Source of the DNA: an uncultured Caulobacter sp.
GTDB lineage: Bacteria > Pseudomonadota > Alphaproteobacteria > Caulobacterales > Caulobacteraceae
Direction of reading: 5' to 3'
Length of the DNA stretch: 64,000 nt
NCBI GenBank assembly: GCA_937991555.1
Contig: CALKHU010000135.1
Location: 1,787 to 65,786, forward strand
The position numbers and the translations under genes were made by a program. The notes under the pieces are model-generated. The model saw only the letters and a list, made by a program, of their open reading frames with translations, did no database searches and was not told the DNA's origin. Positions 12,006 through 64,000 of this stretch are shown one piece after another. Position 1 is the first letter of the stretch. The number at the start of each line of letters is the position of its first letter.

Positions 12006-12661
12006 GCCGGGGCCAGGCGGGCGAGCGCCGCGCGGTGGCGCAGGCGGAAGCGCCGGGCGCCCTGGAACTCGACGATGGCGTCATCCTGGAGTTGCCGCAG
12101 CATCCGGCAGACCGTCTCGATCGTGATGCCGAGGTAGTCGGCGATATCCTGCCGGCCCATCGACAGGTCGATGAGCTCCTTCTTGGACCGGTCGGCGACG
12201 TCGAGGAGGAAGGCCGCGACCTTCTCGCAGGCGCTCTTGCATCCAAGCAGGGTGAGGTGTTCCTGCGTGCGGCGCAGTTCCTGGGCGGTGGCGGCCCAGA
12301 GCGCGCGCTCGATCCTCGCGCCGTCCTCGCCGTAATGCGCGAGCGCCGAACGCTTGATGACCAGGATCACGGTGTCGTTGAGGGCCTCGGCCGAGAATCG
12401 GTGATGGTCGCCGCTCTCGAGCCCGAACAGATCGCCCGGGTAGTAGAAGTCCCCGATCTGGCGACGGCCGTCGCTCAGCAGACGCGTGGTCCGCACGGCG
12501 CCGCTGATCACCCGGTAGACCATGTCGGCCTCTTCCTCCTGGGCGTAGATCTCCTCGCCGGCGGCGTACGGAATGCGAACCCCGATCTTGTCCCAGGGCT
12601 CGGCCATGGCGGCCGCGGCGGCGGATGCGTTCGAGAAGGCGGTCTGGGCTTGAGCGGTCAT
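12002..12661 (-). CDS. fixK: Crp/Fnr regulator, FixK type (no N-terminal Cys cluster)
   Basis: DGRRQIGDF and MGRQDIADYLGITIETVCR; close to fixLJ. Confidence 0.8.
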   Translation of the reverse strand: MTAQAQTAFSNASAAAAAMAEPWDKIGVRIPYAAGEEIYAQEEEADMVYRVISGAVRTTRLLSDGRRQIGDFYYPGDLFGLESGDHHRFSAEALNDTVILVIKRSALAHYGEDGARIERALWAATAQELRRTQEHLTLLGCKSACEKVAAFLLDVADRSKKELIDLSMGRQDIADYLGITIETVCRMLRQLQDDAIVEFQGARRFRLRHRAALARLAPA

Positions 12662-47451: not shown

Positions 47452-47453
47452 GG

Positions 47454-49820: not shown

Positions 49821-50533
49821 GAAAGCTCTGCGGGCGACTTGCGGCGGGCGTTGGTCTCGACCCGGCTGACCCGGCCGTCCCCGAAGTAGAGCACCCTGTG
49901 CGCCATCTCCCGGATCGAGGTGTTGTGGGTGATGACGGCGGTGGTGGCCCCGAGGGTGTCGTTGATGAGGGCGAGCGCCTCAAGAACCCGCACCCCGGTG
50001 GCGAGGTCCAGCGCACCGGTCGGCTCGTCGCAGAGCAGCACCTTCGGCCGCTTGGCGATGGCGCGCGCGATGGCGACCCGCTGCTGCTCGCCACCGGAAA
50101 GCTGGGCCGGGAAGTGATGGGCGCGGGCGGTGAGGCCCACCATCTCCAGCGCCTCGTCCGGAGACATGGGCGCGTCGGCGATCTCGGTGACGAGCGCCAC
50201 GTTCTCCCGGGCGGTCAGGCTTGGCACCAGATTGTAGAACTGGAACACGAATCCGACGTTGCGGCGCCGGTACCGGGTGAGCGCCGCGTCGTTCAGGGTC
50301 GTCAGTTCGAGGCCCTCGAACCGCGCCGATCCGCTGGTGGCGCGGTCAAGGCCGCCGAGGATGTTGAACAGGGTCGACTTGCCGCTGCCGGACGGCCCGA
50401 GGAACACCGCGAACTCGCCGGAGTACAGGTCGAGGTCCAGCCCACGGAGGGCCTGCACCTCCAGCTCGCCGGAGCGGTAGGTCTTGGTCAGGCCACGGGC
50501 CTCGAAGACGGGGGCTGGCGCGCTTTGGTCCAT
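49814..50533 (-). CDS. ABC transporter ATPase
   Basis: [16 protein letters not shown] and DEPTGALD motifs. Confidence 0.93.
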
Positions 50534-50588: not shown

Positions 50589-52355
50589 TCAGGACGGGCC
50601 CGGCGGCTCCGCGGCCGCGCGGCGCGTCGGGTCGGTCGACGGCGCGAGCCGGCCTTCCTCCAGGGCCAGGATCCGGTCGCAGACGGCCAGGCTTTCGGCG
50701 CGATGGGCGATGATCAGCAGGGTCGGCCGCGGCTCGAGCGCCATGAGGCGGGCGAGGACGGCCTGTTCCGATTTCACGTCGAGCGCGCTTCCCGCCTCGT
50801 CGAGGACGAGCAGCCGCGGTCGTCTCAGCAACGCCCGGGCGAGGGCCAGCCGCTGGCGCTCGCCGCCCGAAAGCCGCGCGCCGCGTTCGCCGACGGGAGT
50901 GTCGAGACCCAGGTCCATGCGCCGGACAAGGTCGTCCGCCCCGACCGCTTCCAGGACCGTCCAGAGGTCGGCCTCGCTCGCGCCCGGCGCGGCCCAGGCG
51001 AGGTTCCGGCGCAGGGTGTCGTGGAACAGGTAGGGATCCTGCGAGACATAGGCGACCTGGTCCCGCCAGGCGGTCCGGGCGGCCCCTTTCAGCCTCACGC
51101 CGCCCGCGCTGATCGCGCCCTCCTGGGGCTCGAGAATACCGGCCAGCAGGTCCGCGAGGGTCGTCTTGCCGGCGCCGGACGGCCCGCACAGGCCGACCGC
51201 TTCGCCGGGGTGCAGCACCAGGTCGACGCCGTCCAGGCAGGGTCGCCCATCGGCGTGCCGGTAGGCGACGCCGGCCGCCACCACCGGACCGTCCGGAATC
51301 CCGATGCCGGCGTCGGAGGGCGGCGACGGGCTCCTCGCCAGGTCCGCCGTCAGGGTCTGGAGCGCCCCGTAGGCGGGCAGGGCGTGGACCAGCTGCTGGA
51401 CCCCCTGCTGCAGCTGCGCGGCGGGTCCGCTCATCCGGGACAGGATCAGCAGCGTTGCGATCAGCGTCGGTCCGTCCGTCCCCGACCATACGCCGGCTGC
51501 CAGGACGACGACCCCTGTCAGGGCGGTGGCGGCGGCGGTGACCAGCCGCAGGTTGCTCTGCTGGCGCGCGAAGGCGAGCTGTCGGTCGACGAGCGCGTCC
51601 GCGTCGGCCTCGAAGGCCGCCACGAAGCGCGCCTGCAGGTTCTGGGCGAAGGCCAGCTTCAGTCCGCCCAGGAAGCGCGCGGCCGCGTCGGCCATCGTCA
51701 GCTGCCCTGCCGTCAGGGCTTCGCCGATCCGGCGGGCGCGCCGCAGGACCGGGAGCAGCAGGAGCGCGCCGACGACCATCACCGCCACGGCCGCGACGGC
51801 CATGCCGGGGGCGACCCAGAGCGCCAGGGCGGACTGCGCGGCCAGCACGACGACCGAGACGGCGCAGGCCATCAGCACATGGACGGCCCCGGCGACCTGC
51901 GCGATGTCGATGCCGAGCGCCTTGGTCACCCGCGCGTGGCGGAGGCCTGCGGCCTCGCGCCATTCCGCGCCGGCCAGCGCCCGGATGAGGCGCCGACGGC
52001 TGTGCTCGACGAATCCCGCCTGAAGACCCGCGACCTGCCGGTCGCGCAACGCCAGCAGCAGCGAGCGGACCACGACCAGCGCCGCGAAGCCGCCGACCAG
52101 GACCAGCAACTGCGCCTGACGGCCTTCGGCGCCGGTCACGGCGAAGGCGCGCTCGGCGATGACCTGGAGCTCGCCGCCCGCCGCACCGGTCAGCACGGCG
52201 ATGAGCGGGATCAGCAGCAGAAGCCCCACCCCCTCGACCAGCGCGCCGGCGAGCATCAGCGCCAGGGTCGTCGCGGCCTTCCAGCCGGCGAAGCGGGCCA
52301 GGTCGAGTGCGAAACCGGGGATCGTGGCGCGAAGCGCATCGCCGGCGGCGGTCAC
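50589..52355 (-). CDS. ABC exporter (fused TMD-NBD), RiPP-cluster transporter
   Basis: TM region plus GPSGAGKT, LSGGERQR, LDEA; GTG start after GAAG. Confidence 0.88.
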   Translation of the reverse strand: MTAAGDALRATIPGFALDLARFAGWKAATTLALMLAGALVEGVGLLLLIPLIAVLTGAAGGELQVIAERAFAVTGAEGRQAQLLVLVGGFAALVVVRSLLLALRDRQVAGLQAGFVEHSRRRLIRALAGAEWREAAGLRHARVTKALGIDIAQVAGAVHVLMACAVSVVVLAAQSALALWVAPGMAVAAVAVMVVGALLLLPVLRRARRIGEALTAGQLTMADAAARFLGGLKLAFAQNLQARFVAAFEADADALVDRQLAFARQQSNLRLVTAAATALTGVVVLAAGVWSGTDGPTLIATLLILSRMSGPAAQLQQGVQQLVHALPAYGALQTLTADLARSPSPPSDAGIGIPDGPVVAAGVAYRHADGRPCLDGVDLVLHPGEAVGLCGPSGAGKTTLADLLAGILEPQEGAISAGGVRLKGAARTAWRDQVAYVSQDPYLFHDTLRRNLAWAAPGASEADLWTVLEAVGADDLVRRMDLGLDTPVGERGARLSGGERQRLALARALLRRPRLLVLDEAGSALDVKSEQAVLARLMALEPRPTLLIIAHRAESLAVCDRILALEEGRLAPSTDPTRRAAAEPPGPS

Positions 52356-52435
52356 GGCGTCTTCGCCCTGACCCGGAGGCGGCGCCGTTCGATCGACCGC
52401 TTGATCCGGCGCCGCGATGCGGTCTTCATCGGGGC

Positions 52436-52681
52436 ATGATCCAGGTCGCTCACCGCTTCCTCCGCGCCCTCCGGGCCGACGCCGCGCTCCGCGCGCGTGT
52501 CGCGGATCTGGGTCCGGACGCCGGTCTGGACGACATCGCCGCCCTGGCCGCGGACGCCGGTCACGCCTGTGATCCAGAGTCGCTGCGGGAGGCCTGGCGT
52601 CAAGACTGGACGCTGCGCTGGCTGGCGAACGGATCGGCCACCGGGAACCGGGCCTCCAGCGCCCGCGCCAGCGACGAATAG
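52436..52681 (+). CDS. Nif11-like protein (81 aa)
   Basis: AHRFLRALRADAALRARV..LDDIAALAADAGHACDPESL matches the Nif11 leader pattern; Trp-rich tail WRQDWTLRW. Confidence 0.7.
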   Translation: MIQVAHRFLRALRADAALRARVADLGPDAGLDDIAALAADAGHACDPESLREAWRQDWTLRWLANGSATGNRASSARASDE

Positions 52682-53727
52682 CTCTGCCCGCCCTGGAAGA
52701 AGCTCCGGAAGAAGGCTTCGGGCCTGTCGAGAAAGATCGGCAGGATAAACCGGCGGAGCCGGTCGAGCTCGACGCCGATGGCGGATTGGACCCGGCGGCT
52801 GTGCTCCAGCCCGTCGTCGTCCGCCGTCGTCCCGGCGAGCTTGGCTGCGATGACCTCGCCGGCGATGGCGCCGCTGGCGAGCGCGTATCGTATCCCCTCG
52901 CCCAGGATCGGGTCGACCAGTCCCGCCGCGTCTCCCACCAGACAGACGCGCCGCGTGGAGATGGGGGCCGGGCCCTCGTAGAGCGGGATGGGGTGGCCGC
53001 GGCGGACCTGGCCGAGGATGACGCCCCTGGGCAGGGCGCGGTCCAGATAGGCGTCGAGCAGTCCGGGCATGCCGTCCCGGCGAGTCCACGACCCGATGCC
53101 GCAGGACAGGTGGTCCCGCTTGGGGAAGATCCAGCCATAGCCGCCGGGCGCGCAGGCGAAGTTGAAGCTCATCCGTCCGCCTTCGGCCTCCCAGCCCTCG
53201 GCGGTGACCTCGACCTCGGCGTCGATGGCCACGCCGGGTCGGGTTCGCCGGGAGAGGCCGACGGCGGCGGCCGTGCGTCCGGCCGCGCCGTCGGCGCCGA
53301 CCACGAACCGCGCGCGCAGCCGCTCGCCGGACCGGGCGATGACGGTGACGGCGTCGGCCTCTTCCTCGACATGCGCCACGCCGAAGTCATCGCGCAGCTC
53401 CACGGCGCCCCGTGACAACGCGCGCTCCACGATGTGGAGGTCGAAATCGCGGCGGCCCACCATCCAGGCGCCGTAGGCGCTGTCCTTGTCGACGGCCGGC
53501 CCGAAATCGAGCTGCCACCGCGAGGCGGCGACCTGCGCCTCGATCATCGGCATGAAGTCCCAGTCCAGCGTCGCGCGAACCGGCCCGGGCGTCAGCGCGC
53601 CACCGCAGGCCTTGTCCCGGGGCAGTTTGCGGGCCTCCAGGACCAGCACCCGCGCGCCGGCCTCGGCGAGCTTGAGCGCGGCCATCCCTCCGGCCGGACC
53701 GGTCCCGACGACGATGGCGTCATGCAT
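52600..53727 (-). CDS. Geranylgeranyl reductase-family FAD oxidoreductase
   Basis: GTGPAG, RDKACGG, GADG, GYGWIFPK and GDAAGLVDPILGEGI motifs. Confidence 0.88.
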   Translation of the reverse strand: MHDAIVVGTGPAGGMAALKLAEAGARVLVLEARKLPRDKACGGALTPGPVRATLDWDFMPMIEAQVAASRWQLDFGPAVDKDSAYGAWMVGRRDFDLHIVERALSRGAVELRDDFGVAHVEEEADAVTVIARSGERLRARFVVGADGAAGRTAAAVGLSRRTRPGVAIDAEVEVTAEGWEAEGGRMSFNFACAPGGYGWIFPKRDHLSCGIGSWTRRDGMPGLLDAYLDRALPRGVILGQVRRGHPIPLYEGPAPISTRRVCLVGDAAGLVDPILGEGIRYALASGAIAGEVIAAKLAGTTADDDGLEHSRRVQSAIGVELDRLRRFILPIFLDRPEAFFRSFFQGGQSYSSLARALEARFPVADPFASQRSVQS

Positions 53728-54754
53728 GGGCGGTCAGCTCCGGACTGCGGACAGGGGCGAGCGCGAGGTAGGCCTTGGCCGGCAGGGGGGCGCCGTCCTT
53801 CAGGTTCAGCTTCACGTGGCTGATGAAGGCGCTGAACGCGTCGAGGCGACCCCTTGCGGTGGCGAGGTCGCGCGAGATCAGCGTCTCGGGCCAGGGGAGG
53901 GCGCGGTCCATCGGCGTCACGGCCCCCCGCCAGCCGGCCGCGGCCTCGACCCGCGCCGGCTCGGCGAGACCGGTCCCGGCCAGCCAGTCGAGCAGCGCCG
54001 ACTGGGCCGCTTCTCCCGCCTCGTCGCGCGGATGGATGACCTCGAAGCCGAGGTCGGGGGCGAGGGCCGGGGTGAAGCCCAGCACCAGACGCGTGGCGTC
54101 CCCGACCAGTGGTCCCCGCCCCATCAGGTCGGCCAGCCGGTCGATGTCGCCCGGCCATCCCGCCTCGGCCAGGAAGCGCCGCACCCGGTCGGTCTCCAGA
54201 TCCCGGATCATGCAGCGGAGCTGGGCGTCGCGGGACAGCATCACCCCGACCATGCGGCCCGGCGTCAGGCCATGGGCGACGGCGATCTCGAGCGTCGAGA
54301 CCAGCGTCCTCCAGCCCTCCAGGCCTTCGGGCGCCATCGCCGCCACGAAGCGTTCTCCCGCGGCGATTCCGTCGAGGACCGTGCCGTCGAAGGCCGCGAA
54401 GACGGCGGGCGCGGCGACGCCCTCGTCGTGTTCCAGGCCGATCTCGGTGATGGCCGCGAGTGCGGGATCCTCCGCCCAGGCGCCGGCGAAGGCCGCGAGG
54501 CGCGACCATGCGGGACCGCTCTGCCGCCGCGCCAGCGCCAGCAGCCTGCCCGCCCCGCCGTCCGCGGCGAAGAAGTGCTGCGACACGTCCACGGCCCGGT
54601 CGCTTCCCGCCAGGCGGCACTCGAAATAGACCACCACGTCGGCCGCCACCGCCGGCGCGGCCCGCCGCAGCGTGCCGGCGCCGCCGTCCGGCAGCAGCGC
54701 CGCGGGGAACCGGGCCAGCGCCAGGTCCATCGTCTGGACAGCCAGGACGCTCAT
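53720..54754 (-). CDS. Hypothetical protein, possibly an ABBA-type prenyltransferase
   Basis: Translationally coupled on both sides; FECRL..D, LEHD, GVMLSR..R, GFE and SHVK..KAYL pattern. Function is an inference. Confidence 0.5.
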   Translation of the reverse strand: MSVLAVQTMDLALARFPAALLPDGGAGTLRRAAPAVAADVVVYFECRLAGSDRAVDVSQHFFAADGGAGRLLALARRQSGPAWSRLAAFAGAWAEDPALAAITEIGLEHDEGVAAPAVFAAFDGTVLDGIAAGERFVAAMAPEGLEGWRTLVSTLEIAVAHGLTPGRMVGVMLSRDAQLRCMIRDLETDRVRRFLAEAGWPGDIDRLADLMGRGPLVGDATRLVLGFTPALAPDLGFEVIHPRDEAGEAAQSALLDWLAGTGLAEPARVEAAAGWRGAVTPMDRALPWPETLISRDLATARGRLDAFSAFISHVKLNLKDGAPLPAKAYLALAPVRSPELTAHA

Positions 54755-55707
54755 GCGAACAGGCGCCGCCGCAGAAGGGCGGCCATCGCCGGCAGGGCGT
54801 CGAGGTCGTCGGGCAGGCTCAGCGTCCGGATCGGCGTGGCCGCGGCGACTCGCGCCAGCAGGGACAGCTCCTGCCGCCGCTGTTCGCGCCCGGGCGTGAT
54901 CATCCCGATCAGGTTGGCCGCCAGTTCCGCGAGCCGCTCGCCGGGCGGCAGATCCTCGATCAGCGGCTCGGCCAGACCGGCGATGCGCGGCGTCATACGG
55001 TAGATGGCGTGCAGTCGAACCGGCGTCGCCTGGAACCGGGCCGGATCGTGGACGCTGACCTTGGCCATCTCGGTGGTGGTCGGAAACAGTGTGGTGGCCG
55101 TGGCGTCGCTGACGCCCAGCCTGCGCGCCGAGTCCGGCCACATGCGCAACCGGGCCCGCCCCGGCTGCACCAGAAAGCCGTCGGCGTCCCCGACCAGCCC
55201 GACGAGGTCGTCAGTGACCAGCCGGCAACCCTCGTCGATCAGGGCCCAGGCCAGGCTCGACTTTCCCACGCCCGACGCGCCCATCAGCGCGATGGCCCGT
55301 CCCTCCGCGGCCAGGGCGGTGGCGTGCACGCAGGGTCGACCCGCCAGCCTGAGGGCGCGCCCCAGGATCGGTCCCTCGATCAGATTGGCGATTTCGGCGT
55401 CGGTCTCGCCTTCGCCGGCCTGGACGGTGATCTCGCACCCGTCACTGCGGATGCCGAAGTCGGCGACATGTCCGCGATAGTCATACCGCAGTCGGTACCA
55501 GCCGCCGTCGGACGAGCGCCAGTACTCGACCTTCGCCCAGTCGGGCGTCAGCTCGGACCCTTCGGGATGTTCGAGCCACTCCAGTCCGTCAGCGGGCGCG
55601 CCCCGGCGAATGCAGATCACAACGTCCGCAACGCCTGCGGCGTCCAGCAAACCGGACAGCGCGATCTCGCTCGCGACCTCCGCCGCGCCCAGTCGGTAGC
55701 GGCGCAT
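54751..55707 (-). CDS. HPr-kinase-like lasso peptide kinase
   Basis: VHATAL, GASGVGKSS Walker A and TDD; directly downstream of the precursor. Confidence 0.85.
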   Translation of the reverse strand: MRRYRLGAAEVASEIALSGLLDAAGVADVVICIRRGAPADGLEWLEHPEGSELTPDWAKVEYWRSSDGGWYRLRYDYRGHVADFGIRSDGCEITVQAGEGETDAEIANLIEGPILGRALRLAGRPCVHATALAAEGRAIALMGASGVGKSSLAWALIDEGCRLVTDDLVGLVGDADGFLVQPGRARLRMWPDSARRLGVSDATATTLFPTTTEMAKVSVHDPARFQATPVRLHAIYRMTPRIAGLAEPLIEDLPPGERLAELAANLIGMITPGREQRRQELSLLARVAAATPIRTLSLPDDLDALPAMAALLRRRLFA

Positions 55708-55725
55708 GACGGGAAGGGCTGGCGT

Positions 55726-55863
55726 CTAGGACGTGTACGAGCCGGGGCCGTTGGCGTCGTTCGGCCCGTTGGTCGTGGCCGTGTTGGTCATGCTGCGGAT
55801 CGTGCCATGTTCGGTCAGGCGCGGCGCCTGGTACGGCATCTTCTTGGCAGGTTGTTCCGACAT
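55726..55863 (-). CDS. Lasso peptide precursor (A): 27-aa leader plus core TATTNGPNDANGPGSYTS
   Basis: Leader YQAPRLTEHGTIRSMTN = Y(-17)xxP(-14)xL(-12)xxxG(-8)xxxxxT(-2); Asp at core position 9; follows B1/B2. Confidence 0.9.
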   Translation of the reverse strand: MSEQPAKKMPYQAPRLTEHGTIRSMTNTATTNGPNDANGPGSYTS

Positions 55864-55940
55864 GAGCTTCCCCAGTAAGCCTTCGTGGTCGACGGTAACT
55901 GCCGCGGCCGGGGCACCCGAGCGCGCGCGTCGGTTGTCAT

Positions 55941-56384
55941 TTAGCCGCTGTTTGTCGCTCTGCGCCAGAGGCAATTGTAGGTGGCGTCCAGGTCCGCAGG
56001 TTCGTTGACCGGCTCGCCGTCGATTTCAACCCAGGCATGGGCGTCGAATTCGCCCACGGTCCGGGTTCCCAGGCAGAGATCGGCGGCGATCCCCCGTCGC
56101 CGCAAGGAACCGGCGAGCAGCAGCGCGCGGGGCAGGCAGCGGGCGTCGAACGGCATGCGGTCGGCGATCCGGCCGATGGCGCGGGCCTGGGCTTCGGCCA
56201 GGGGTCTCGGCTCCAGCCTGTTCGGGCGCGGCGGCGGCAACCGGTCGGCCAGCCGCCAGACAATGCTCGCCGACCGCTGCAACCCGAGGCTGTGCACCAG
56301 GAGCGACATGGCGCCCAGGGCCGCCGCCACCGGCGCGGCCTGGACGAGGGCCTTCAGCCTACCCGGCGGCGACGAGGAGGCCAT
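55941..56384 (-). CDS. Lasso leader peptidase (B2, transglutaminase-like)
   Basis: CLPRAL..LRRRG..G..AHAWVE Cys/His motif. Confidence 0.92.
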   Translation of the reverse strand: MASSSPPGRLKALVQAAPVAAALGAMSLLVHSLGLQRSASIVWRLADRLPPPRPNRLEPRPLAEAQARAIGRIADRMPFDARCLPRALLLAGSLRRRGIAADLCLGTRTVGEFDAHAWVEIDGEPVNEPADLDATYNCLWRRATNSG

Positions 56385-56649
56385 GGTTGCGGAGCTCGAT
56401 GGCCAGCCTGGCGATGTCCTGCTCGATCGTCTCCAGCGGCGCGTCGTAGACTTCGGCGACGGCCCTGGCGGCGGCGCCGATGGTCTCGGCGGTCTCCATC
56501 GCCTGCCACATCCGGGTGCCGACCTCGTCGAGCCCGAAGTAGGTCTCGGTCTCGAGGTTCAGCAGGGCGGCGTTTCCGGCCACCTCCTGGAACAGGACGT
56601 AGTCGGGAACCTCGGCCTTTGCGCCCAGAATAATTTCGATCTCGGTCAT
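56359..56649 (-). CDS. RiPP recognition element (B1, PqqD family)
   Basis: LLNLETETYFGLDEVGTRMW..Y..DI..L..GLL pattern. Confidence 0.92.
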   Translation of the reverse strand: MTEIEIILGAKAEVPDYVLFQEVAGNAALLNLETETYFGLDEVGTRMWQAMETAETIGAAARAVAEVYDAPLETIEQDIARLAIELRNHGLLVAAG

Positions 56650-56666
56650 TGCTCCTCCGCGTTGGG

Positions 56667-56695
56667 GCTATAGGCTTGCGCGCCAAAGGCTGCAA
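56667..56695 (-). promoter_or_regulatory. Sigma70-like promoter TTGCAG-N17-TATAGC for the B1-B2-A-kinase operon
   Basis: Read on the minus strand just upstream of the GGAGGAG RBS of B1. Confidence 0.55.
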
Positions 56696-56712
56696 TCGGG
56701 CTGTAGAAAACC

Positions 56713-58545
56713 ATGGCGCGCGACACCCCGGGGGACCATGCGAGGCTCGACCTCTGCCTCGTCGTTCCCCCGTTCGACCAGATCAAGATTCCGCTGCTCG
56801 GGCCCGCCATCCTGACCGCCGCCTGCCGGAATCGCGGCCTGTCGGTGAAGACGGTCTTCGGCAGCATCATGCTGGCCGCCCGGGTCGGCTATGAGCCCTA
56901 CAAGGCGGTGTCGCGCTACTACCTCGACTGCATCGTCGGGGAACGGTTGTTCCGGCCCCATGCCTGGCCGCCGGAGATCGACGCGACCCTTCCGCCGCTG
57001 CCGCCGCTGGCGGAGAAGCCGGCCGCGCTCTGCGACCTGCTGGCCCCGCAGATCGGGCCCTTCGTCGACGACTTTGTCGCCGCGGTCCTCGCCGACCGCC
57101 CCCGTATCGTGGCGATCACCTCGACGTTCGAGCAGATCATGGCCGGCTCGGCCCTCGCCTGGCGGATCAAGCAGGCTGACCCCGATATCTGCGTGGTCAT
57201 GGGCGGCGCAAACATCGCCTCGCCGATGGGCCAGGCCTTCGCCCAGGTCTTTCCATGGGTGGACCATTTCTTCGCGGGCGAGGCGGACGTCGCCTTTCCG
57301 GACTTCTGCGAACGGCTTGTGCGCACGGGCGAGCGTCCGGTCGAACGCGTCGTGGAATGCGCGCCCATCGAGCGGATCGACCAGGCGCCGGCGCCGGACT
57401 TCAGCGATTTCATTGCGGCGTTGCGCCAGGCCCAGGCGGACGGCCGCCTGCCGGCGGACCTGCCCGAAGGACTGCCCCTGGAGAGCTCTCGCGGCTGCTG
57501 GTGGGGCATGAAGCACCACTGTGTCTTCTGCGGCCTGAACGGCGACACGATGGACTTCCGCATCAAGCCGCCCGAGCGGATGATCGGCGAGATCCGCGAC
57601 CTCGTCGAGCAGTGGGACCCCGACCGGCTGTCGTTCACCGACAACATCATGCCGATGGGCTACCTGCAGACCGTACTGCCGGAACTGGCGACCTGGGAGC
57701 GCAAGCCGGGACTGTTCTACGAGGTCAAGGCGAACCTCCGCTTCGACCAGCTCGAGCTGATGCGGCGTGCGGGCATGGTGCAGATCCAGCCGGGCTTGGA
57801 GTCGCTGTCGACCAACGTGCTCCGGATCATGCGCAAGGGGGTCTCGGCCCTGCAGAACCTGGCGCTGCTGCGCGACTGCGCCTCGCTGGACATCTACGTA
57901 CTGTGGAACATCCTCTACGGCTTCCCGGGCGAGACGACGGCGGACTACGCCGGGCTGCCGGACCTCTTCCCGAAGATCGAGCATTTCCGGCCGCCGCAGT
58001 ACTGCGTGCCGATCGTGATCGACCGCTTCAGCCCCCACCACCGCGACCCGCAGGCGTTCGGCATCGACTCCTATGCCCCGTATCCGGGGTTCGCCGCGCT
58101 GTTCCCGCCCGGAGCGCCGGTGATGGATCTCGCCTACCACTTCATCGGCCAGCACACGACGGACTTCATGCGGGACGAGGGCCTGGTCGCGGCGGTGCAC
58201 GCGGCTTACGACGCTTGGACCGAGCGGTGGGCCGGTCGCCCGCCGATCCTCGCGGCGCTCGACATCGGCGGCGCCGTGGTCGTCGCCGACACGCGGCGGG
58301 CGGCCGTCCAGCGCATGACGCCGCTGTCGCCGGCGGCGGACGACCTGCTGCGCCACCTCGAAAAGCCCCGCCGACGCGACAGTCTCGACCCGGCCTCGGC
58401 CGAGGTGCTGGCCGACCTGCTGGCGCGCCACTTCGTCATCGAGCACGAGGACCTGCTGATCAGCGTGGTCACCCGCCCGCCCGCGAAGGGGCAGGCGCCG
58501 GCGCTGACCCGACCGGCGCGGAGCGCCGTGCCGACCGTCGTCTGA
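56713..58545 (+). CDS. B12-dependent RiPP-maturation radical SAM C-methyltransferase
   Basis: MGGAN..GEAD cobalamin domain, ESSRGCWWGMKHHCVFCGLNG, YEVKANL, QPGLESL, WNILYGFPGE and DRFSP motifs. Confidence 0.88.
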   Translation: MARDTPGDHARLDLCLVVPPFDQIKIPLLGPAILTAACRNRGLSVKTVFGSIMLAARVGYEPYKAVSRYYLDCIVGERLFRPHAWPPEIDATLPPLPPLAEKPAALCDLLAPQIGPFVDDFVAAVLADRPRIVAITSTFEQIMAGSALAWRIKQADPDICVVMGGANIASPMGQAFAQVFPWVDHFFAGEADVAFPDFCERLVRTGERPVERVVECAPIERIDQAPAPDFSDFIAALRQAQADGRLPADLPEGLPLESSRGCWWGMKHHCVFCGLNGDTMDFRIKPPERMIGEIRDLVEQWDPDRLSFTDNIMPMGYLQTVLPELATWERKPGLFYEVKANLRFDQLELMRRAGMVQIQPGLESLSTNVLRIMRKGVSALQNLALLRDCASLDIYVLWNILYGFPGETTADYAGLPDLFPKIEHFRPPQYCVPIVIDRFSPHHRDPQAFGIDSYAPYPGFAALFPPGAPVMDLAYHFIGQHTTDFMRDEGLVAAVHAAYDAWTERWAGRPPILAALDIGGAVVVADTRRAAVQRMTPLSPAADDLLRHLEKPRRRDSLDPASAEVLADLLARHFVIEHEDLLISVVTRPPAKGQAPALTRPARSAVPTVV

Positions 58546-58548
58546 TCC

Positions 58549-59733
58549 TTGGCCGATCGGTCCCCCGAGCTTGGGCTGCTGGCGGCCTGCATGCTCTGGC
58601 CGCCGTCCGAGGCGCGGTCGCGGGCCGTGGCGCAGGCCGCGGCCGACCCCGCTCTCGACTGGGAGGCCTTCGCCAGAACCGTCGACCGGCACCGCGCCGC
58701 CGCCTTCGCCCATGACGGCCTGACCCGGGCGGGCGCGACCGCCGCGCCGGCCGCCTTCCGCGCAACGCTGGCGCGGCGGGCGGCGGCCGACGGCCTGATC
58801 AACAGGGCCTACGTCCGCGAAGGCGAGCGTCTGGTCGCGGCGCTGCGCGACGCCGGCCTTGAGGTCATGGTCCTGAAGGGGGCCGGGCTGGTCGCGGCCG
58901 CCTACGGCGATCTGGGCGTGCGCCAGATCCGGGACCTCGACCTGCTGGTCCGACCGGAGGCCCTGGGCCGCGCCGGCGAGATCTGCGAGGCCGCCGGATA
59001 CGTCCGCCTGCAGCCGCCGCCGGGGTCGACGCCGGCGCAGCTGGCCGCCTGGATGCGGTGGCGCAAGGATATCCTCTATCGCCACGGCGCGAGCGGCCTG
59101 ACCCTCGAACTGCACTACCGCCCGACGCTCAGTCCCGGGCTCGCGGCGCGGCTGGACCTGTGGAGCGCCGGCGCGGAGGTGACCCTGCCGGGCGGCGGGA
59201 CGACGCCGGCCGCCACGGGCGAGGCCCTCTACGCCTACCTCTGCCTGCATGGCGGCTTCTGCGCCTGGTTCCGGCTCAAATGGCTTGCGGACATCGCCGC
59301 CCTCACGGCGGGCCTGGCGCCGGACGCCCTCGCGGGCCTGCACGAGGCCGCCCGGGCGCGAGGCGCGGGGCGTGCCTCCGCCCAGGCCCTTCTGCTCGTC
59401 GAGCAGGTGTTCGACCGGCCGCTTCCGCCGGATCTGCGGCGCAGGATCGTGTCCGACCGGACGGTTCGCCGCCTGGTCCGTTTCGCCCTGGCGGTGCTGT
59501 CCGACCCGCGCGAGCCCGAACAGGTTCCCTTGCGCTCGACCGCGATCCAGCTGCACCGGCTGCTGCTGATCGAGGACTGGCGCGACCGGATCGAGGACGT
59601 CCGCGGCATGCTGGTCGACTGGCCGTTGGTCTTCGCCCTGCCGCTGCCGCGACCGCTCTGGTTCCTCTACCCGCTGCTCAGGGGGCCGGCCTGGGCCTTG
59701 CGCAAGCTTCGCCGCCGCAGGCCGTCGTCATGA
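58549..59733 (+). CDS. Nucleotidyltransferase family protein (lasso-cluster type)
   Basis: LKG..Y..R..RDLDLLV, ELH and H..WFRLKWLADI motifs. Confidence 0.85.
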   Translation: MADRSPELGLLAACMLWPPSEARSRAVAQAAADPALDWEAFARTVDRHRAAAFAHDGLTRAGATAAPAAFRATLARRAAADGLINRAYVREGERLVAALRDAGLEVMVLKGAGLVAAAYGDLGVRQIRDLDLLVRPEALGRAGEICEAAGYVRLQPPPGSTPAQLAAWMRWRKDILYRHGASGLTLELHYRPTLSPGLAARLDLWSAGAEVTLPGGGTTPAATGEALYAYLCLHGGFCAWFRLKWLADIAALTAGLAPDALAGLHEAARARGAGRASAQALLLVEQVFDRPLPPDLRRRIVSDRTVRRLVRFALAVLSDPREPEQVPLRSTAIQLHRLLLIEDWRDRIEDVRGMLVDWPLVFALPLPRPLWFLYPLLRGPAWALRKLRRRRPSS

Positions 59734-61657
59734 CCGGCTCGAACACCTCGGCGACCCGACGGGCGCCGCGGTCGTTGAGGTGGCCCGCGTCGCGATAGAA
59801 GGCTCCGCGCGCGTCGGACAGCCGGCAGATCGACCCGTCGCACAGGCGCAGCCCGGGCCTCAGCAGGCGCAGGAGGCCTCTCTGCTGCAGGGCCTCCGCC
59901 GGCGGACGCTGCCCCGACAACTGCATGCGGTACTCGTCCAGCCCGATCGTCGCCGACGGGGGGCGGCCCAGGACCGCCGCCTTGGCCAGGCGATCGGGCG
60001 AGGCCGAGAGCGCATAGGGCGTGTCCTCCACGAAGTAGACGGTCACCCCCAGCCGGGTCAGCGCGGCCACCGTCCGTTCGAGCGCCCTCCGGGCCTCGGC
60101 CGCCGCGAGGTACGGCTGACGCCGTCCGTGCTCGCTCCAGACGCCGCGGAAGTCAGGACGGATGAACGGGCCCATGGCGGGGCCCCATTTGCCGGCCAGG
60201 ATCACAGCGGCCGGACGCTCTGCGGCGATCACCTCCAGCACCCGGCGGTTGCGCGCTTCGCAGGCCGGCCCCGAACCTGAAAAGCCGATCAGCGGCGCGC
60301 AGCCGAGTTCGGTGAGATCGAAGCCCGCCGCGCCGCGCCGTGTCGCGAGGTCATCCAGCCCGGCCCGGTACATCGCCGCATGGGAGTCGCCCCACAGAAT
60401 GAAGGTCGGACGCGCCCTCGGATCCCCGAGCCGGCACTCCGCCCCGGCGCGTGTTTCGAGCGGCCGGCCGGCGCAGGGAAAGTCGGCGCGGGAGTCCGGA
60501 TCGGCCAGCCGCAAGACCGGCTCGGCGAACCGCTGGGGCAGGCCGTCCAGGGCGCGCAGCGCCACGCCGTAGAGCCCCAGGACGATGCTGCTCGCCGACA
60601 GCAGGACGATGAGCCTTCTGCGTGACAGCCAGCCGTCCGGCCCCCGGAACGGCTGCTCCACATACCGCCAGGAGAGCCAGGCGACCGGGACCGCGACCGC
60701 GGCCATCGCCATCCGCACCGGCGTCGCCCAGGCTTCGTCGAGCATGTAGTAGCCGCCGAACACGATCAGCGGCCAATGCCAGAGATAGAGCGAGTAGGAG
60801 ATCAGCCCGAGCCCGGCCAGAGGTCGAAAGGCCAGCAGGCGGGCGACCCGCGAGCCGGGGGCCTGCGTCCCGTGAATGACGAGGGCCGCGCCCAGGCAGG
60901 GCGCGAGCGCGTTGACGCCGGGAAACGGGTCTGCCGGGGTGAGCCGCCAGATCGCCCAGACGATGGCGGCCATCCCGGCCGCCGCCAGCGCGTCCCCGGT
61001 CCGGCGGCCCGGCGCCGGCAGCACCCCGAGGGCCAGCAGGGCGCCGAGCAGGAACTCCCAGGCGCGCGACAGCGGCGAGTAGAAGGCCAGGTTGGGCGCC
61101 TGTCCCGCCGTCCACACGCTGTAGCCGAAGGACAGGGCCGCGATCAGCCCGAGCGCGGCGACGAGCGTCGGCCGGCCGCGCCGGGCCGCCAGGACCAGCA
61201 GGACGGGAAAGATGAGGTAGAACTGCTCCTCGATCGACAGGGACCAGGTATGCAGCAGCGGCGCGGAGCCGCTCGCCATCCCGAAGTAGTCGTTCCAGCG
61301 GGCGAACTGGACGTTCGAGAGAAAGACGATCATCGCCGCGAGGCTCGAGCCGAACCGCTGCAGGTCGGCCGGCAACAGCATCAGCGCCAGACCCCCGCTG
61401 ACGGCCAGCATGAACAGCAGGGCCGGGAGGATCCGGCGCGCCCGCCGCTCGTAGAAGTCCGCGAAGGAGAAACGTCCTCCGGCCCGGTCGGCCAGGATCA
61501 GGCGGGCGATGAGATAGCCTGAGATCACGAAGAAGACGTCGACCCCGACGAAGCCGCCGGACAGTCCCGGCGCGCGCGCGTGGAACAGCACCACGGCCGC
61601 CACGGCGATTCCCCGCAGGCCGTCGATCTCGGGTCGTTGACCGGGCCGGGACGCCAT
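59678..61657 (-). CDS. Acyltransferase-3 / SGNH fusion (OafA-like)
   Basis: IDGLRG, GVDVFFVISG, HTWSLSIEEQFY, SYSLYLWHWP, GDSHA and DAGH motifs. Confidence 0.92.
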   Translation of the reverse strand: MASRPGQRPEIDGLRGIAVAAVVLFHARAPGLSGGFVGVDVFFVISGYLIARLILADRAGGRFSFADFYERRARRILPALLFMLAVSGGLALMLLPADLQRFGSSLAAMIVFLSNVQFARWNDYFGMASGSAPLLHTWSLSIEEQFYLIFPVLLVLAARRGRPTLVAALGLIAALSFGYSVWTAGQAPNLAFYSPLSRAWEFLLGALLALGVLPAPGRRTGDALAAAGMAAIVWAIWRLTPADPFPGVNALAPCLGAALVIHGTQAPGSRVARLLAFRPLAGLGLISYSLYLWHWPLIVFGGYYMLDEAWATPVRMAMAAVAVPVAWLSWRYVEQPFRGPDGWLSRRRLIVLLSASSIVLGLYGVALRALDGLPQRFAEPVLRLADPDSRADFPCAGRPLETRAGAECRLGDPRARPTFILWGDSHAAMYRAGLDDLATRRGAAGFDLTELGCAPLIGFSGSGPACEARNRRVLEVIAAERPAAVILAGKWGPAMGPFIRPDFRGVWSEHGRRQPYLAAAEARRALERTVAALTRLGVTVYFVEDTPYALSASPDRLAKAAVLGRPPSATIGLDEYRMQLSGQRPPAEALQQRGLLRLLRPGLRLCDGSICRLSDARGAFYRDAGHLNDRGARRVAEVFEPVMTTACGGEACARPRPAP

Positions 61658-61665
61658 GCCGCCGG

Positions 61666-62991
61666 TCAGGGTCTGCGGCACCAGAAGTGATACATGCCGG
61701 AGAACAGCTCCGGCTCGCGCCACTCCGTCGCCGCCCAGGCGTCGAAGTCGCGGAACCACGGGTCGTGCGGATGCTCGGACCGGTACCGGGCGCGTCGCGT
61801 CTTCCCCGGAAGCTCGAAGCCGAGGAACTCGAGGCCGAGCGACTCGATCCCGCGCCGGATGCGCGGCACGTCGAACAGGTCCTCGTGCCGGTTGAACAGC
61901 AGGTCGTGGACGCCGCCCAGCGAGGCGAAGTCCGGCGACCAGGTCAGGGCGTGTACAGGGTCGGCGAGCAGCCGCCCGCGTGCTTCGCGCAGCAGGTCGT
62001 CATCCACCGGCCGGTCCAGCAGGTCGGCGATCCGGTGCTGGGCCGACCGGACGCGCAGCCGGGCCAGCTTGCTGTAGACCATGATGCTCATCACCCCGCC
62101 CGGCTTCAGGGCCTCCACCAGCCTGGCCCAGTCCGCTTCCGGCGAGGGCAGGTGATGCAGCACGCCCGAACAGCTGATCAGGTCGAAGCGGCCCAGCGCC
62201 GGCGCATCGCGCAGGTCTCTCTGCTCCCAGCGGACGTTGGTGATACCCAGCGAAGCCCAGCGTTCGGCGGCATAGGCCAGGGACGCGGCGCTGAGGTCTA
62301 TGGCCGTGATCCGCGCTTCCGGCGCCCGCATGGCGATGAGCGCCGTCTCGCGGCCGGTCCCGCAGCCAGCGACCAGGATCGAGGGCGCCTCGGGCAGTTC
62401 GATCGGCTCCGGACCGAGCCTTGCGATCATGCCGGCGAGCGTGTCGCCGCGCGGCCTGGTGACCCTTTCCCAGACCGGATAGGGCCAGATTTCGTACTGC
62501 TCGGCGACCGCGCGCTTGACGGGGGACGGGTTGGCGATCGCCGGGCCAGGTCGGGGACGTTTCGGCAGATAGGCGGCGGCCAGCACGGCCCCGTCCGGTC
62601 GCGCGAGCGCGGCCCGCTCCTCGTCGTCGAACGGCCAGGCGCCGCCATTGCGCGCGGCCTGGGCGACAAGGGCGGCCGTGAGCGCCGGGAAACCGGCCGC
62701 ACGGCCGGACAGCAGCAGCCAGCGACGCAACGCTGTCAGCGCCCGTTCCGAGGGCGGATGGGTGACGCATGTCTCGGTCAGGAAGGCCAGGGCGGGGCCG
62801 CTCGCCTCGACCCTCCGCGCGCCCTCTTCGTCGGGAGAGGGGAGGCGCCCGGTCTCGGCCAGGATTTCCCAGCCCGCGCGGGCCGGCTGGATCGGGTCCA
62901 CGGCCGGGTCGGTCGCCAGGGCGCGCAACCCATCGAGAGCTGCGTCCGTCGCGCCGGCGCCGGCCAGTCGGCGCGCCTCATCGAGTTCCAT
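61666..62991 (-). CDS. Class I SAM-dependent methyltransferase
   Basis: QYEIWPYP, LVAGCGTG, IDLS, SGVLHH and LKPGG motifs. Confidence 0.88.
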   Translation of the reverse strand: MELDEARRLAGAGATDAALDGLRALATDPAVDPIQPARAGWEILAETGRLPSPDEEGARRVEASGPALAFLTETCVTHPPSERALTALRRWLLLSGRAAGFPALTAALVAQAARNGGAWPFDDEERAALARPDGAVLAAAYLPKRPRPGPAIANPSPVKRAVAEQYEIWPYPVWERVTRPRGDTLAGMIARLGPEPIELPEAPSILVAGCGTGRETALIAMRAPEARITAIDLSAASLAYAAERWASLGITNVRWEQRDLRDAPALGRFDLISCSGVLHHLPSPEADWARLVEALKPGGVMSIMVYSKLARLRVRSAQHRIADLLDRPVDDDLLREARGRLLADPVHALTWSPDFASLGGVHDLLFNRHEDLFDVPRIRRGIESLGLEFLGFELPGKTRRARYRSEHPHDPWFRDFDAWAATEWREPELFSGMYHFWCRRP

Positions 62992-63008
62992 CACGGCACG
63001 CTCTTCGG

Positions 63009-63037
63009 TTGCCCGGCCCAGGGCGACTTTCTATAGC
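63009..63037 (+). promoter_or_regulatory. Sigma70-like promoter TTGCCC-N17-TATAGC for the cyclase
   Basis: Same spacing and -10 hexamer as the B1 promoter. Confidence 0.55.
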
Positions 63038-63074
63038 GTGTCGGCGGGGGCGCAAGGCGCGGGCGAACGGATCA

Positions 63075-64000
63075 ATGACGGGCTTTGCCGGCTTCATCGG
63101 GCCCCGGGGGGCGGCCCCGGACCCCGCCCTTTCACAGGCCATGCGCGCCGCCATCGCCTACATGGGCCCGGACCGCCGGGACCACTGTGAGTCGGACGGC
63201 GTCCTGCTCGCCCAAGCCCTGCTCGCCACCACGCTTGAGGAGCGCGGCGACCGCCAGCCCCTGACCTTCGACGGTCGCGCGCATCTGGTCGCGGACGCCC
63301 GAATCGACGGCAGGTCCGCGCTCATCGCGGAACTGCAAGCCGCCGGACGCCGGGTGGCCGCCGATGCGCCCGACAGCGCCCTGATCCTGCATGCCTGGCA
63401 CGTCTGGGGAGAGTCCGCGCCGGAGCACCTGATCGGCGATTTCGCCTTCGTCGTCTGGGACAGCGAGGCGCGCCGCCTGTTCGCCGCCCGTGACCATTTC
63501 GGCAGCGTGCCGTTCTACTTCGCCAGGGTCGGCGAGACCTTCCTGTTCGGCAACGCCGTGCCCGCCCTGCTCGCCCATCCTGGCCTCGACCGTTCCCTGA
63601 ACCCGGTGGCGGTCGGCGATTACCTGATGTTCGGCCACAGCCTCGACCAGGGGTCCGGCTTCTACCGCGCCATCGACCGGCTGCCGCCGGCGCACAGCCT
63701 GTCGTTCGCCGACGGGACCGTCCGGATGCGCCGTTACTGGACGTTGCCGCCGCCCGACTTCGAGGCCGCCCGGACGCTGCGTCCCGACGCCCTGGCCGAG
63801 CAGTTCGGGGCGATCCTGGCGCAGGCCGTCAGCGACAGGGTCCGCCTCGACAAGGTCGCCACCACGCTCAGCGGCGGAATGGACTCGACCCTGATCACCG
63901 CCCTCGCCATGCGCGGATCGTCGGCCCGCATCGACAGCTACTCCTTCGGCGGCGACTGGCTGACGCCCGACGTCGAGCGGCACTGGGCCTGGCGCTGCGC
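63075..64000 (+). CDS. Asparagine-synthetase-like lasso cyclase (C), truncated by the window edge
   Basis: Not in the ORF track. MTGFAG (no Cys nucleophile)..GPD..ADARID..GDFAF..ARDHFG..LSGGMDS PP-loop. Confidence 0.88.
   Translation, partial: MTGFAGFIGPRGAAPDPALSQAMRAAIAYMGPDRRDHCESDGVLLAQALLATTLEERGDRQPLTFDGRAHLVADARIDGRSALIAELQAAGRRVAADAPDSALILHAWHVWGESAPEHLIGDFAFVVWDSEARRLFAARDHFGSVPFYFARVGETFLFGNAVPALLAHPGLDRSLNPVAVGDYLMFGHSLDQGSGFYRAIDRLPPAHSLSFADGTVRMRRYWTLPPPDFEAARTLRPDALAEQFGAILAQAVSDRVRLDKVATTLSGGMDSTLITALAMRGSSARIDSYSFGGDWLTPDVERHWAWRC

Follow-up and report, generated by a model that had tools for sequence, protein, structure and literature searches.

What is made by a lasso peptide gene cluster whose core genes are interleaved with up to seven putative tailoring enzymes? 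The question is raised by a locus in a metagenome-assembled genome (MAG) of an uncultured Caulobacter sp. (assembly GCA_937991555.1), which lies at the end of a 64,000-nucleotide stretch of DNA (the window; positions 1787-65786 of the 66.8-kb contig CALKHU010000135.1) and runs from window position 50589 to 64880 when it is extended into the contig. Our best reading, to which we assign a probability of roughly two in three, is that the locus is a functional split-B lasso peptide biosynthetic cluster from a small alphaproteobacterial family with a fixed module, that its product is a lasso peptide phosphorylated at the C-terminus and carrying a reduced isoprenoid, and that a small Nif11-like protein is the obligate companion of the protein family predicted to install this isoprenoid. 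The product would probably be a lasso peptide bearing both a phosphate and a lipid tag, a type that has yet to be characterised.

Lasso Core Machinery and Precursor

Since the region has a G+C content of ~ 72%, genes were called from the third-position GC (GC3) frame profile, followed by family searches (Pfam, NCBIfam). All 13 genes named in a first-pass annotation of the window, comprising the lasso core with its ABC exporter and the tailoring genes between them, are present and intact, at or near the coordinates proposed there. The core displays the three components of a split-B lasso machinery. The recognition-element protein B1 (56359-56649, minus strand) is PqqD-like (Pfam PqqD, 1.6e-14) and matches the lasso PqqD chaperone models of NCBIfam with scores below their cut-offs. 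The leader peptidase B2 (55941-56384, minus strand) is transglutaminase-like (Pfam Transglut_core3, 1e-23) and scores 78 bits against NF033537 (lasso_biosyn_B2; cut-off 33). The Asn-synthase-like cyclase C (601 residues; Pfam Asn_synthase, GATase_7) occupies 63075-64000 on the plus strand and continues 880 nt past the window to a stop at 64880; its best NCBIfam match is NF033535, the lasso isopeptide bond-forming cyclase, at 250 bits, below the cut-off of 525.

The precursor A (55726-55863, minus strand; 45 residues) was recognized from its translation and from weak matches to the lasso leader models NF033521 and NF033528. It combines a YxxPxL...T leader with a core that contains a single Asp and ends in GPGSYTS. 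By family resemblance, B1 would bind the YxxPxL leader, B2 would remove it and C would close the ring onto the only Asp. Cleavage according to the Thr(-2) rule, directly before Thr1, yields an 18-residue core with a Thr1-Asp9 ring and a cyclised mass of 1705.718 Da, in agreement with the 1705.7 Da calculated by hand in the first-pass annotation, although the register on which this value depends is uncertain and is weighed below.

A Module Conserved Across Related Loci

The most informative entry point into related genomes is an unannotated protein of 344 residues that we discuss below as a candidate prenyltransferase. It has 38 close relatives at 44-63% identity in a collection of 5.8 billion proteins, none of which bears a family name, and their records stem from Caulobacter, Brevundimonas, Sphingopyxis and Sphingomonas. 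The contigs of these relatives, along with nine loci from species-representative genomes, provided ten independent alphaproteobacterial neighbourhoods, referred to here as the related loci. A tblastn matrix reveals that the genes for a radical S-adenosylmethionine (rSAM) enzyme, B1, B2, C, A, a kinase, the candidate prenyltransferase, a geranylgeranyl-reductase (GGR) family flavoenzyme and the Nif11-like protein occur together in all ten. Tailoring and lasso genes are thus syntenic, so the lack of synteny that the first-pass annotation had named as grounds for giving up its prediction is not what is found. The remaining genes, encoding a nucleotidyltransferase-like protein (NTase), an OafA-type acyltransferase, a class I methyltransferase and the ABC exporter, are accessory within the related loci. 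One other Caulobacter MAG (L022, identical with L013) carries the same 13 genes in the same order, accessory genes included, at 54-78% protein identity.

Conservation extends to the precursor. In orthologous precursors from eight loci, leader, Asp, Tyr and C-terminal Ser are all retained. The nine precursors of the ten related loci all end in this Ser except that of an uncultured alphaproteobacterium (L026), which ends in Thr. At that locus the candidate prenyltransferase is ~ 41% identical and the rSAM gene lies downstream of the NTase gene; the cyclase, kinase, prenyltransferase and reductase match only piecewise, which suggests frameshifts due to either assembly errors or decay.

More distant relatives reach beyond the Alphaproteobacteria, in loci of 44-72% G+C, and retain the module to different extents. 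L049 has B1, B2, C, A, kinase, prenyltransferase, GGR, NTase and Nif11-like gene. A prenyltransferase-methyltransferase fusion in L052 comes with C, A, kinase, NTase and Nif11-like gene, and a prenyltransferase-cyclase fusion in L054 with NTase, B1, C, A, kinase and Nif11-like gene. L050 has A, kinase, prenyltransferase, GGR and ABC exporter, with no Nif11-like open reading frame (ORF) within 14.5 kb. In L055, a prenyltransferase-cyclase fusion is accompanied by B1, A, kinase and a Nif11-like gene, and B2 and C are missing. L051 and L053 each harbor a prenyltransferase-cyclase fusion and a Nif11-like gene without kinase, A, B or C. The adjacency of A, kinase and prenyltransferase is kept in the distant loci, including L055 with its missing B2 and C. 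The precursors of L049, L050, L052 and L054 also end in Ser, and the L055 peptide ends in Gln.

Some of these distant loci display features of their own. In L055 (6510-10357), a B1-like recognition element accompanies a 41-residue peptide with a lasso-type leader and a core lacking Asp and Glu, with no B2 or cyclase within 8 kb; from its sequence, this looks like a lasso-derived leader and recognition system reused for a non-lasso lipidated peptide. L051 (6171-9326) and L053 (7195-10569) are adjoined by genes for a secreted protein of the PEP-CTERM type and for a large protein of phosphodiesterase/sulfotransferase type, with an exosortase gene in L051. In L050 (8480-14563), a relative of lower GC, cobalamin-related genes (a CobA/BtuR-type adenosyltransferase, a TonB-dependent receptor, FecCD-type uptake and CbiA) come directly after the lasso, kinase, prenyltransferase, GGR and ABC genes, and L050 has no B12-rSAM gene despite these neighbours.

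Kinase and Radical SAM Enzyme

The gene directly following A encodes an HprK-like peptide kinase of 318 residues (54751-55707, minus strand; Pfam Hpr_kinase_C and HprK-related NCBIfam models). Its motif, H128, G143xxGxGKS150 and D166D167, has a spacing identical to that of BsfK (H148...D186D187), in which the His...GxxGxGKS...DD residues were shown to be essential (PMC10368454). Both features expected of an HprK-like lasso precursor kinase system are present: the catalytic motif in the enzyme and, at the C-terminus of the precursor, a residue with a hydroxyl group, the L055 peptide with its Gln being the exception. PadeK, ThcoK, PsmK and the sphingomonad SyanK have been shown to phosphorylate or polyphosphorylate linear precursors at their C-terminal Ser. 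By analogy with these homologues, the kinase described here would phosphorylate the C-terminal Ser of the linear precursor.

The first-pass annotation had assigned the combination of split B and kinase to the paeninodin/pseudomycoidin architecture. This architecture is indeed shared, as the systems of paeninodin (PadeK), ThcoK, SyanK (Sphingobium yanoikuyae), pseudomycoidin (PsmK, PsmN) and BsfK likewise combine split B1/B2, an HprK-like kinase with this catalytic motif, a Ser-ending precursor and an ABC exporter, but kinase-bearing split-B clusters had already been described in Proteobacteria, SyanK being an example. A PF14907-type NTase is also found both here and in some of the kinase-bearing lasso clusters. 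As far as their available descriptions go, those clusters lack the B12-rSAM enzyme, predicted ABBA prenyltransferase, GGR-family reductase, Nif11-like gene and OafA-type protein that the Caulobacter cluster has. A kinase search of 400 sampled Alphaproteobacteria returned only distant HprK-like matches of at most 35% identity, and the SyanK cluster was not located among them.

Divergently from B1, with 63 nt between the two genes, lies the rSAM gene (56713-58545, plus strand; 610 residues; Pfam Radical_SAM). Its product scores 525 bits against TIGR03975 (cut-off 282) and carries a Cx7Cx2C cluster at residues 262-273, while the Pfam match to the B12-binding domain is weak (21 bits, cut-off 32). 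Score and Cys cluster place it among the B12-dependent RiPP (peptide that is ribosomally synthesized and undergoes post-translational modification) C-methyltransferases of TIGR03975, a strong membership that it shares with the proteusin enzymes and others; its position back-to-back with a lasso B1 sets it apart from these. The C-terminal 130 residues have no Pfam match even at E 10. With orthologues at 53-77% identity in nine loci, it is the best conserved protein of the cluster. Among 200 genomes of the same bacterial family, we found five homologues at ~ 38% identity, none of them in a lasso context. We expect this enzyme to C-methylate one or more unactivated carbons of the peptide.

Predicted Prenyltransferase Fold of the 344-Residue Protein

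The gene of the 344-residue protein (53720-54754, minus strand) starts within the kinase stop in a shared ATGA (a 4-nt overlap), and its own stop is overlapped by 8 nt by the start of the reductase gene. These overlaps place precursor, kinase, 344-residue protein and reductase in a single translational unit. With 21 homologues as its basis, AlphaFold2 gives a confident model (predicted local distance difference test 88, predicted template modelling score 0.86) with five beta-beta-alpha-alpha units. Foldseek lists nothing but ABBA-barrel aromatic prenyltransferases among its top 50 hits (NphB/Orf2, EpzP, AmbP1, DMATS, TleC, MpnD, CymD), and VIA-align gives Z values of 14-16.5 across 255-295 residues, covering residues 3-337. 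Neighbours in language-model space include the Trp_DMAT and PTase_Orf2 clusters at 0.88-0.89, which we take as a lead only. On its predicted fold, the protein belongs to the ABBA (PT-barrel) superfamily, and we predict that it is an ABBA-barrel prenyltransferase. Invariant R47, R167, R175, R180, K315, K327, Y43, Y329 and H313 and the near-invariant R222 fall on predicted strands with alternating spacing and may line the barrel to hold the prenyl diphosphate. No membership in the Trp_DMAT, PTase_Orf2 or cyanobactin prenyltransferase families could be established, which is why we file the protein as one that works like these enzymes and forms a family of its own.

The size of this family and its domain fusions offer a second line of evidence. 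A family profile retrieves 2290 representatives at E <=0.001 and 1231 at <=1e-10. Among the best 149 matches, 65 are 550-790 residues long, i.e., fusions of ~ 700 residues, in which the C-terminal part is a squalene-hopene-cyclase-like (SQHop_cyclase) domain in 44 and a cyclopropane-synthase (CMAS)-type methyltransferase in 13. Alignment of the 344-residue family with the N-terminal domain of the fusions by hhalign gives a probability of 100% and an E value of 2.3e-53 over 345 columns, and most of the basic, Tyr and His residues listed above recur in the fused relatives, where the invariant positions (E, R, D, H, K, Y) are unchanged. At the level of sequence profiles, homology with the N-terminal domain of prenyltransferase-cyclase and prenyltransferase-methyltransferase fusions is certain. 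A terpene-cyclase-like or olefin-methyltransferase-like partner in 57 of the 65 fusions points at an isoprenoid as the substrate.

The characterized enzyme closest to this picture is NctPC, in which an ABBA-fold prenyltransferase acting on peptides is joined to a class II terpene cyclase. According to a recent review, it transfers geranylgeranyl onto Trp and then cyclises it, and its prenyltransferase domain shows little similarity to cyanobactin prenyltransferases (PMC13290415). Proteins built like these NctPC-type maturases have an N-terminal domain homologous to the 344-residue protein, the kinship of NctPC itself being deduced from its architecture. In the Caulobacter cluster, by contrast, the predicted prenyltransferase carries no fused cyclase and is paired with a GGR-family reductase encoded by a gene of its own, indicating that the isoprenoid would be saturated instead of cyclised. 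The 2024 paper by Hubrich et al. that described NctPC reportedly predicts maturases of this kind for Nif11-like and lasso peptides.

A barrel of this kind might also serve another purpose, such as binding or processing the (poly)phosphorylated C-terminal Ser, in which case the flavoenzyme could be a peptide oxidoreductase or hydroxylase. Function is not shown by a shared fold, and the protein belongs to no prenyltransferase family at the sequence level. Moreover, the kinase to which it is closely coupled has homologues that produce Ser-O-polyphosphates, that is, diphosphate-like groups, and the fold of the GGR family is common to flavin monooxygenases and halogenases. We nevertheless consider such a role very improbable in view of the partners of the 57 fused relatives, of the flavoenzyme scoring above the curated GGR cut-off with all three GGR motifs in place, and of the presence of the prenyltransferase family without any kinase in L051 and L053.

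Coupled Geranylgeranyl-Reductase Family Flavoenzyme

The flavoenzyme (52600-53727, minus strand; 375 residues; Pfam FAD_binding_3, GGR_cat) scores 207 bits against TIGR02032, for which the cut-off is 158.8. Weaker matches in Pfam and NCBIfam are to flavin monooxygenases and halogenases. The hallmarks of active GGRs are an active-site Cys, a YxWxFPx7-8GxG motif and a GGG/GEG motif (PMC6309074), and the flavoenzyme displays each of them, with Cys41 in KACGG, YxWxFPx7GxG at 197-212 and GEG at 276-278. In score, Cys and both motifs it is a member of the family, to which archaeal GGR, ChlP/BchP and MenJ also belong. These known enzymes reduce side chains of lipids, chlorophyll or quinones, or prenyl diphosphates; in the searchable literature we found neither a GGR from any RiPP pathway nor a GGR-family reductase described as the partner of a peptide prenyltransferase.

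Combined with the prenyltransferase fold and with the cyclases and methyltransferases fused to relatives, the coupled GGR gene is most simply explained by installation of an isoprenoid followed by processing of its double bonds. From the genes, the processing in this cluster is most simply read as saturation. The 344-residue protein would transfer an isoprenoid, most plausibly C15-C20, to the peptide, and the GGR-family enzyme would then saturate the prenyl double bonds; both prenyl steps are proposed from fold, domain fusions and gene coupling. In the sequence of events that we propose, leader binding by B1, phosphorylation and C-methylation would come before leader removal and ring closure, and prenyl transfer, reduction and the accessory steps after them. 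A donor may be at hand, as the MAG encodes three trans-polyprenyl diphosphate synthases (contigs C188, C147 and C245), and the one in excess of the usual farnesyl diphosphate and octaprenyl pair could be a source of a geranylgeranyl diphosphate-type donor. For the mass shift of +68n listed in the first-pass annotation, a candidate enzyme has hereby been found in the 344-residue protein with its predicted ABBA fold. We also considered a dehydroalanine route following lanthipeptide logic, in which the kinase, the 344-residue protein as a lyase and a flavin reductase convert Ser/Thr via dehydro residues to Ala/Abu. This route was dropped on account of the prenyltransferase-barrel fold and of the flavoenzyme passing the GGR tests.

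Nif11-like Gene and the Prenyl Acceptor

On the opposite strand, convergent with the reductase gene and overlapping its 3' end by 82 nt, lies a small ORF encoding an 81-residue Nif11-like protein (52436-52681, plus strand). Its scores remain below the cut-offs of both PF07862 (21.5 bits, cut-off 23.8) and TIGR03798 (21.8 bits, cut-off 32.3), while orthologues elsewhere do carry PF07862. The ATG start is at the same place in all ten related loci, the proteins are 44-62% identical and the third codon position is the most variable one; judged by this sequence evidence, the ORF is a real gene. Across the related loci it always lies on the opposite strand at the reductase 3' end, and a convergent Nif11-like gene at the 3' end of the prenyltransferase or partner gene is present in 16 of 17 distinct loci examined. 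The protein does not qualify as a Nif11-like leader precursor of the TIGR03798 type, as its score is below the cut-off, a Gly-Gly site is absent and the segment after the domain, which contains a DWxLRW motif, is conserved. In Sphingomonas rustica HF-S3 (L024), the Nif11-like protein (12158-12376) has neither the DW..RW motif nor any Trp, and the rest of the module is intact.

The ubiquity of this gene raises the possibility of two products. The lasso peptide would then be only phosphorylated, and possibly glycosylated and methylated, while prenyltransferase and GGR act on the Nif11-like peptide as a second RiPP precursor, perhaps at a Trp of DWxLRW. The convergent gene in 16 of 17 loci, among them L051 and L053 that have no kinase, A, B or C, fits such a scenario, as do the standing of Nif11 as a known RiPP leader family (TIGR03798), the Trp prenylation by NctPC, an enzyme whose relation to the 344-residue protein is drawn from architecture, and the conserved Trp residues in the motif after the Nif11 domain. 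We consider this scenario unlikely, however. The Nif11-like protein offers no Gly-Gly cleavage site and the exporter no peptidase domain; the region after the domain is conserved rather than hypervariable; and the only cultured carrier, S. rustica HF-S3, has a Trp-free version. L050 keeps A, kinase, prenyltransferase and GGR with no Nif11-like ORF in its 14.5 kb, translation of the prenyltransferase is coupled to that of the kinase behind A, and B1, A, kinase and prenyltransferase are all kept in L055, which has no cyclase.

We therefore favour the lasso tail as the acceptor, giving it about double the odds of the Nif11-like peptide, with the invariant Tyr three residues from the C-terminus as the likeliest site. 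The Nif11-like peptide is also unlikely to be a general substrate of the rSAM enzyme: Nif11-like genes follow the prenyltransferase family in six loci without rSAM, and no Nif11-like ORF lies close to the rSAM paralogues of this bacterial family. Of the multiply modified lasso peptide put forward in the first-pass annotation, the part that holds is the synteny of the tailoring genes; that the lasso peptide is the substrate of all seven enzymes is unsupported, with the Nif11-like gene encoding a possible second substrate.

Accessory Enzymes and Export

Four genes of the cluster are shared by few of the related loci. The NTase gene (58549-59733, plus strand; 394 residues; Pfam NTP_transf_5 or PF14907, 3e-40) follows the rSAM gene after 3 nt and has an orthologue in L022, with more distant ones in L026 and in L049, L052 and L054. 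The pseudomycoidin enzyme PsmN, described only as a member of an uncharacterised nucleotidyltransferase family, adds one or two hexoses to the phospho-Ser of this peptide. The PF14907 protein matches that description, and by this likeness it may, in this genome, glycosylate the phospho-Ser as PsmN does. The OafA-type membrane O-acyltransferase (59678-61657, minus strand, with ATG at 61657 as the most likely start rather than 61759) has the AT3-SGNH architecture, with Acyl_transf_3 at residues 43-364 and SGNH at 438-675. Its same-position orthologue is found only in L022 (65% identical), and within the related loci OafA occurs only where NTase and exporter do as well. It may reasonably be expected to O-acylate the sugar on the outside of the membrane, during or after export.

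The class I SAM methyltransferase (61666-62994, minus strand; 442 residues; Pfam Methyltransf_12, _25 and _31), of which the N-terminal 190 residues have no Pfam match even at E 10, has orthologues in two further loci of the ten, L020 and L022, and may add another methyl group. In the Sphingopyxis cluster (L015, 12395-13531), a PrmA-like methyltransferase gene after the reductase replaces it. On these gene contents, methylation seems to be a recurrent, independently recruited add-on. The ABC exporter (50589-52355, minus strand, with GTG at 52355 as the start according to the frame profile; Pfam ABC_tran) is McjD-like, joining permease and ATPase, and would pump out the product. Among the related loci only L022 shares it, and the more distant L050 also has one. 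Its NCBIfam matches (MsbA, HepA, type I secretion) span residues 28-571, and the match to the NHLP peptidase-type exporter starts at profile position 187, meaning that the peptidase part is missing. Glycosylation, O-acylation, this second methylation and export are the weakest links of the proposed pathway.

One could argue that the peptide is left untouched by OafA, by the class I methyltransferase and possibly by the NTase, and that their genes serve ordinary envelope or housekeeping purposes and sit between rSAM and cyclase by accident, all the more since they are absent from eight of the ten related loci and AT3-SGNH enzymes usually acylate glycans of the cell surface. Chance placement appears improbable to us, because a second genome, in which their products are only 61-67% identical, has the genes between rSAM and C with order and orientation unchanged, rSAM and NTase are 3 nt apart, PF14907 recurs in distant loci with lasso, kinase and prenyltransferase genes, and the PsmN precedent supplies a sugar acceptor for the O-acyltransferase.

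Cluster Boundaries

At its 3' side the cluster extends past the window, as the first-pass annotation had anticipated, but only by the end of the cyclase gene. In the sister locus (L022), the cyclase is followed by a beta-lactamase gene and an autotransporter gene, and these unrelated genes indicate that the cluster ends at the cyclase. On the other side, the lasso exporter directly borders on a MacB-type ABC efflux system (46264-50533, minus strand), which consists of an HlyD-like adaptor, an FtsX/MacB permease and an ATPase; we excluded it, as the MacAB/HlyD genes are not conserved beside the sister cluster and are probably unrelated. A 74-residue ORF (56646-56870, minus strand) that is seemingly coupled to B1 and overlaps the rSAM start was also rejected as a gene, since its tblastn "orthologues" lie only antisense to the conserved rSAM N-terminus, as expected for a shadow ORF.

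Weighing the Proposed Product

Several observations weigh against a phosphorylated and prenylated lasso peptide as the product. The first concerns the register of leader and core. Applied to L019, L024 and L026, the Thr(-2) rule predicts a 10-residue ring, a size that we know of in no lasso peptide; L019 also has a Glu at core position 8. Moving the cut by one or two residues leads to rings of 7-9 everywhere, at the cost of breaking the Thr(-2) rule. As the register is uncertain, the mass of 1705.718 Da should be used alongside the alternatives of 1604.670 Da for an Ala1-Asp8 ring and 1533.633 Da for a Thr1-Asp7 ring. The second concerns the acceptor. The lasso core contains no Trp. With Nif11 being a RiPP leader family and NctPC prenylating Trp, the Nif11-like peptide could, by analogy, be the true acceptor, and the pairing of Nif11-like and prenyltransferase genes in L051 and L053, where lasso genes and kinase are missing, likewise suggests it as a second substrate. 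Furthermore, the 344-residue protein has no match in Pfam or NCBIfam, nor among PDB sequences in a profile search at E 10, so that its predicted activity derives from fold modelling and domain fusions. As for the accessory enzymes, a single other genome shares the combination of NTase, OafA and ABC exporter, and the normal targets of OafA-type enzymes are envelope glycans. Finally, the source MAG is fragmented (279 contigs, 88% complete), and the product is deduced from genes alone.

Comparison with Known Lasso Systems

Part of this inventory is already known, namely kinase-bearing split-B lasso clusters, including proteobacterial ones, PsmN-type NTases and Trp prenylation of lasso peptides. 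In the last case (Harris et al. 2024; collinodin 2025; cited in PMC13352647 and PMC12715784), the prenyl group is reported to be installed after threading and independently of the leader, and the accessible parts of the two citing papers mention no reductase, kinase or rSAM enzyme. Those peptides also differ in their acceptor, Trp, which the present core lacks. Known tailoring, as compiled in a 2026 review on lasso peptides, comprises phosphorylation, glycosylation, acylation, Trp prenylation and a few further types; radical SAM is not mentioned there at all. In the searchable literature we found no B12-rSAM described as fixed beside a lasso B1, no OafA-type acyltransferase described in a lasso cluster, no combination of kinase, prenyltransferase and Nif11 described as a unit, and, in line with the first-pass annotation, no characterized cluster with the same enzyme set. 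The clusters of astexin and caulosegnin come from the same bacterial family and belong to the same RiPP class. They have a fused B, an isopeptidase and little tailoring, whereas the cluster described here has split B1/B2 and there is no isopeptidase gene in the window.

Going further, we hypothesize that A with its recognition element, the kinase, the ABBA prenyltransferase and the Nif11-like protein constitute a peptide-lipidation cassette that crosses phyla and whose last enzyme is interchangeable (reductase, terpene cyclase or olefin methyltransferase). The Caulobacter product might then be the first ribosomal peptide with a saturated, phytanyl-like isoprenoid, borne on a phospho-glycosylated, O-acylated and C-methylated lasso peptide, with the Nif11-like protein being a novel type of trans-acting partner of the prenyltransferase rather than a precursor. 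We put this forward tentatively, as an idea somewhat more doubtful than probable.

Significance

The cluster is a strong candidate for experiment, if somewhat less singular than the first-pass annotation implied. Lasso peptides are valued scaffolds with limited known tailoring, and if the proposed pathway is true, a reduced long-chain isoprenoid and a B12-dependent C-methylation are predicted, neither of which we found described for this class. As S. rustica HF-S3 is a cultured isolate, the core module is accessible without synthetic reconstruction. For the protein family as a whole, ~ 2,300 representative clusters that had carried no annotation can now be named prenyltransferase-like, and their modular pattern, a prenyltransferase combined with a reductase, a cyclase or a methyltransferase, leads to hypotheses that are testable by mass spectrometry.

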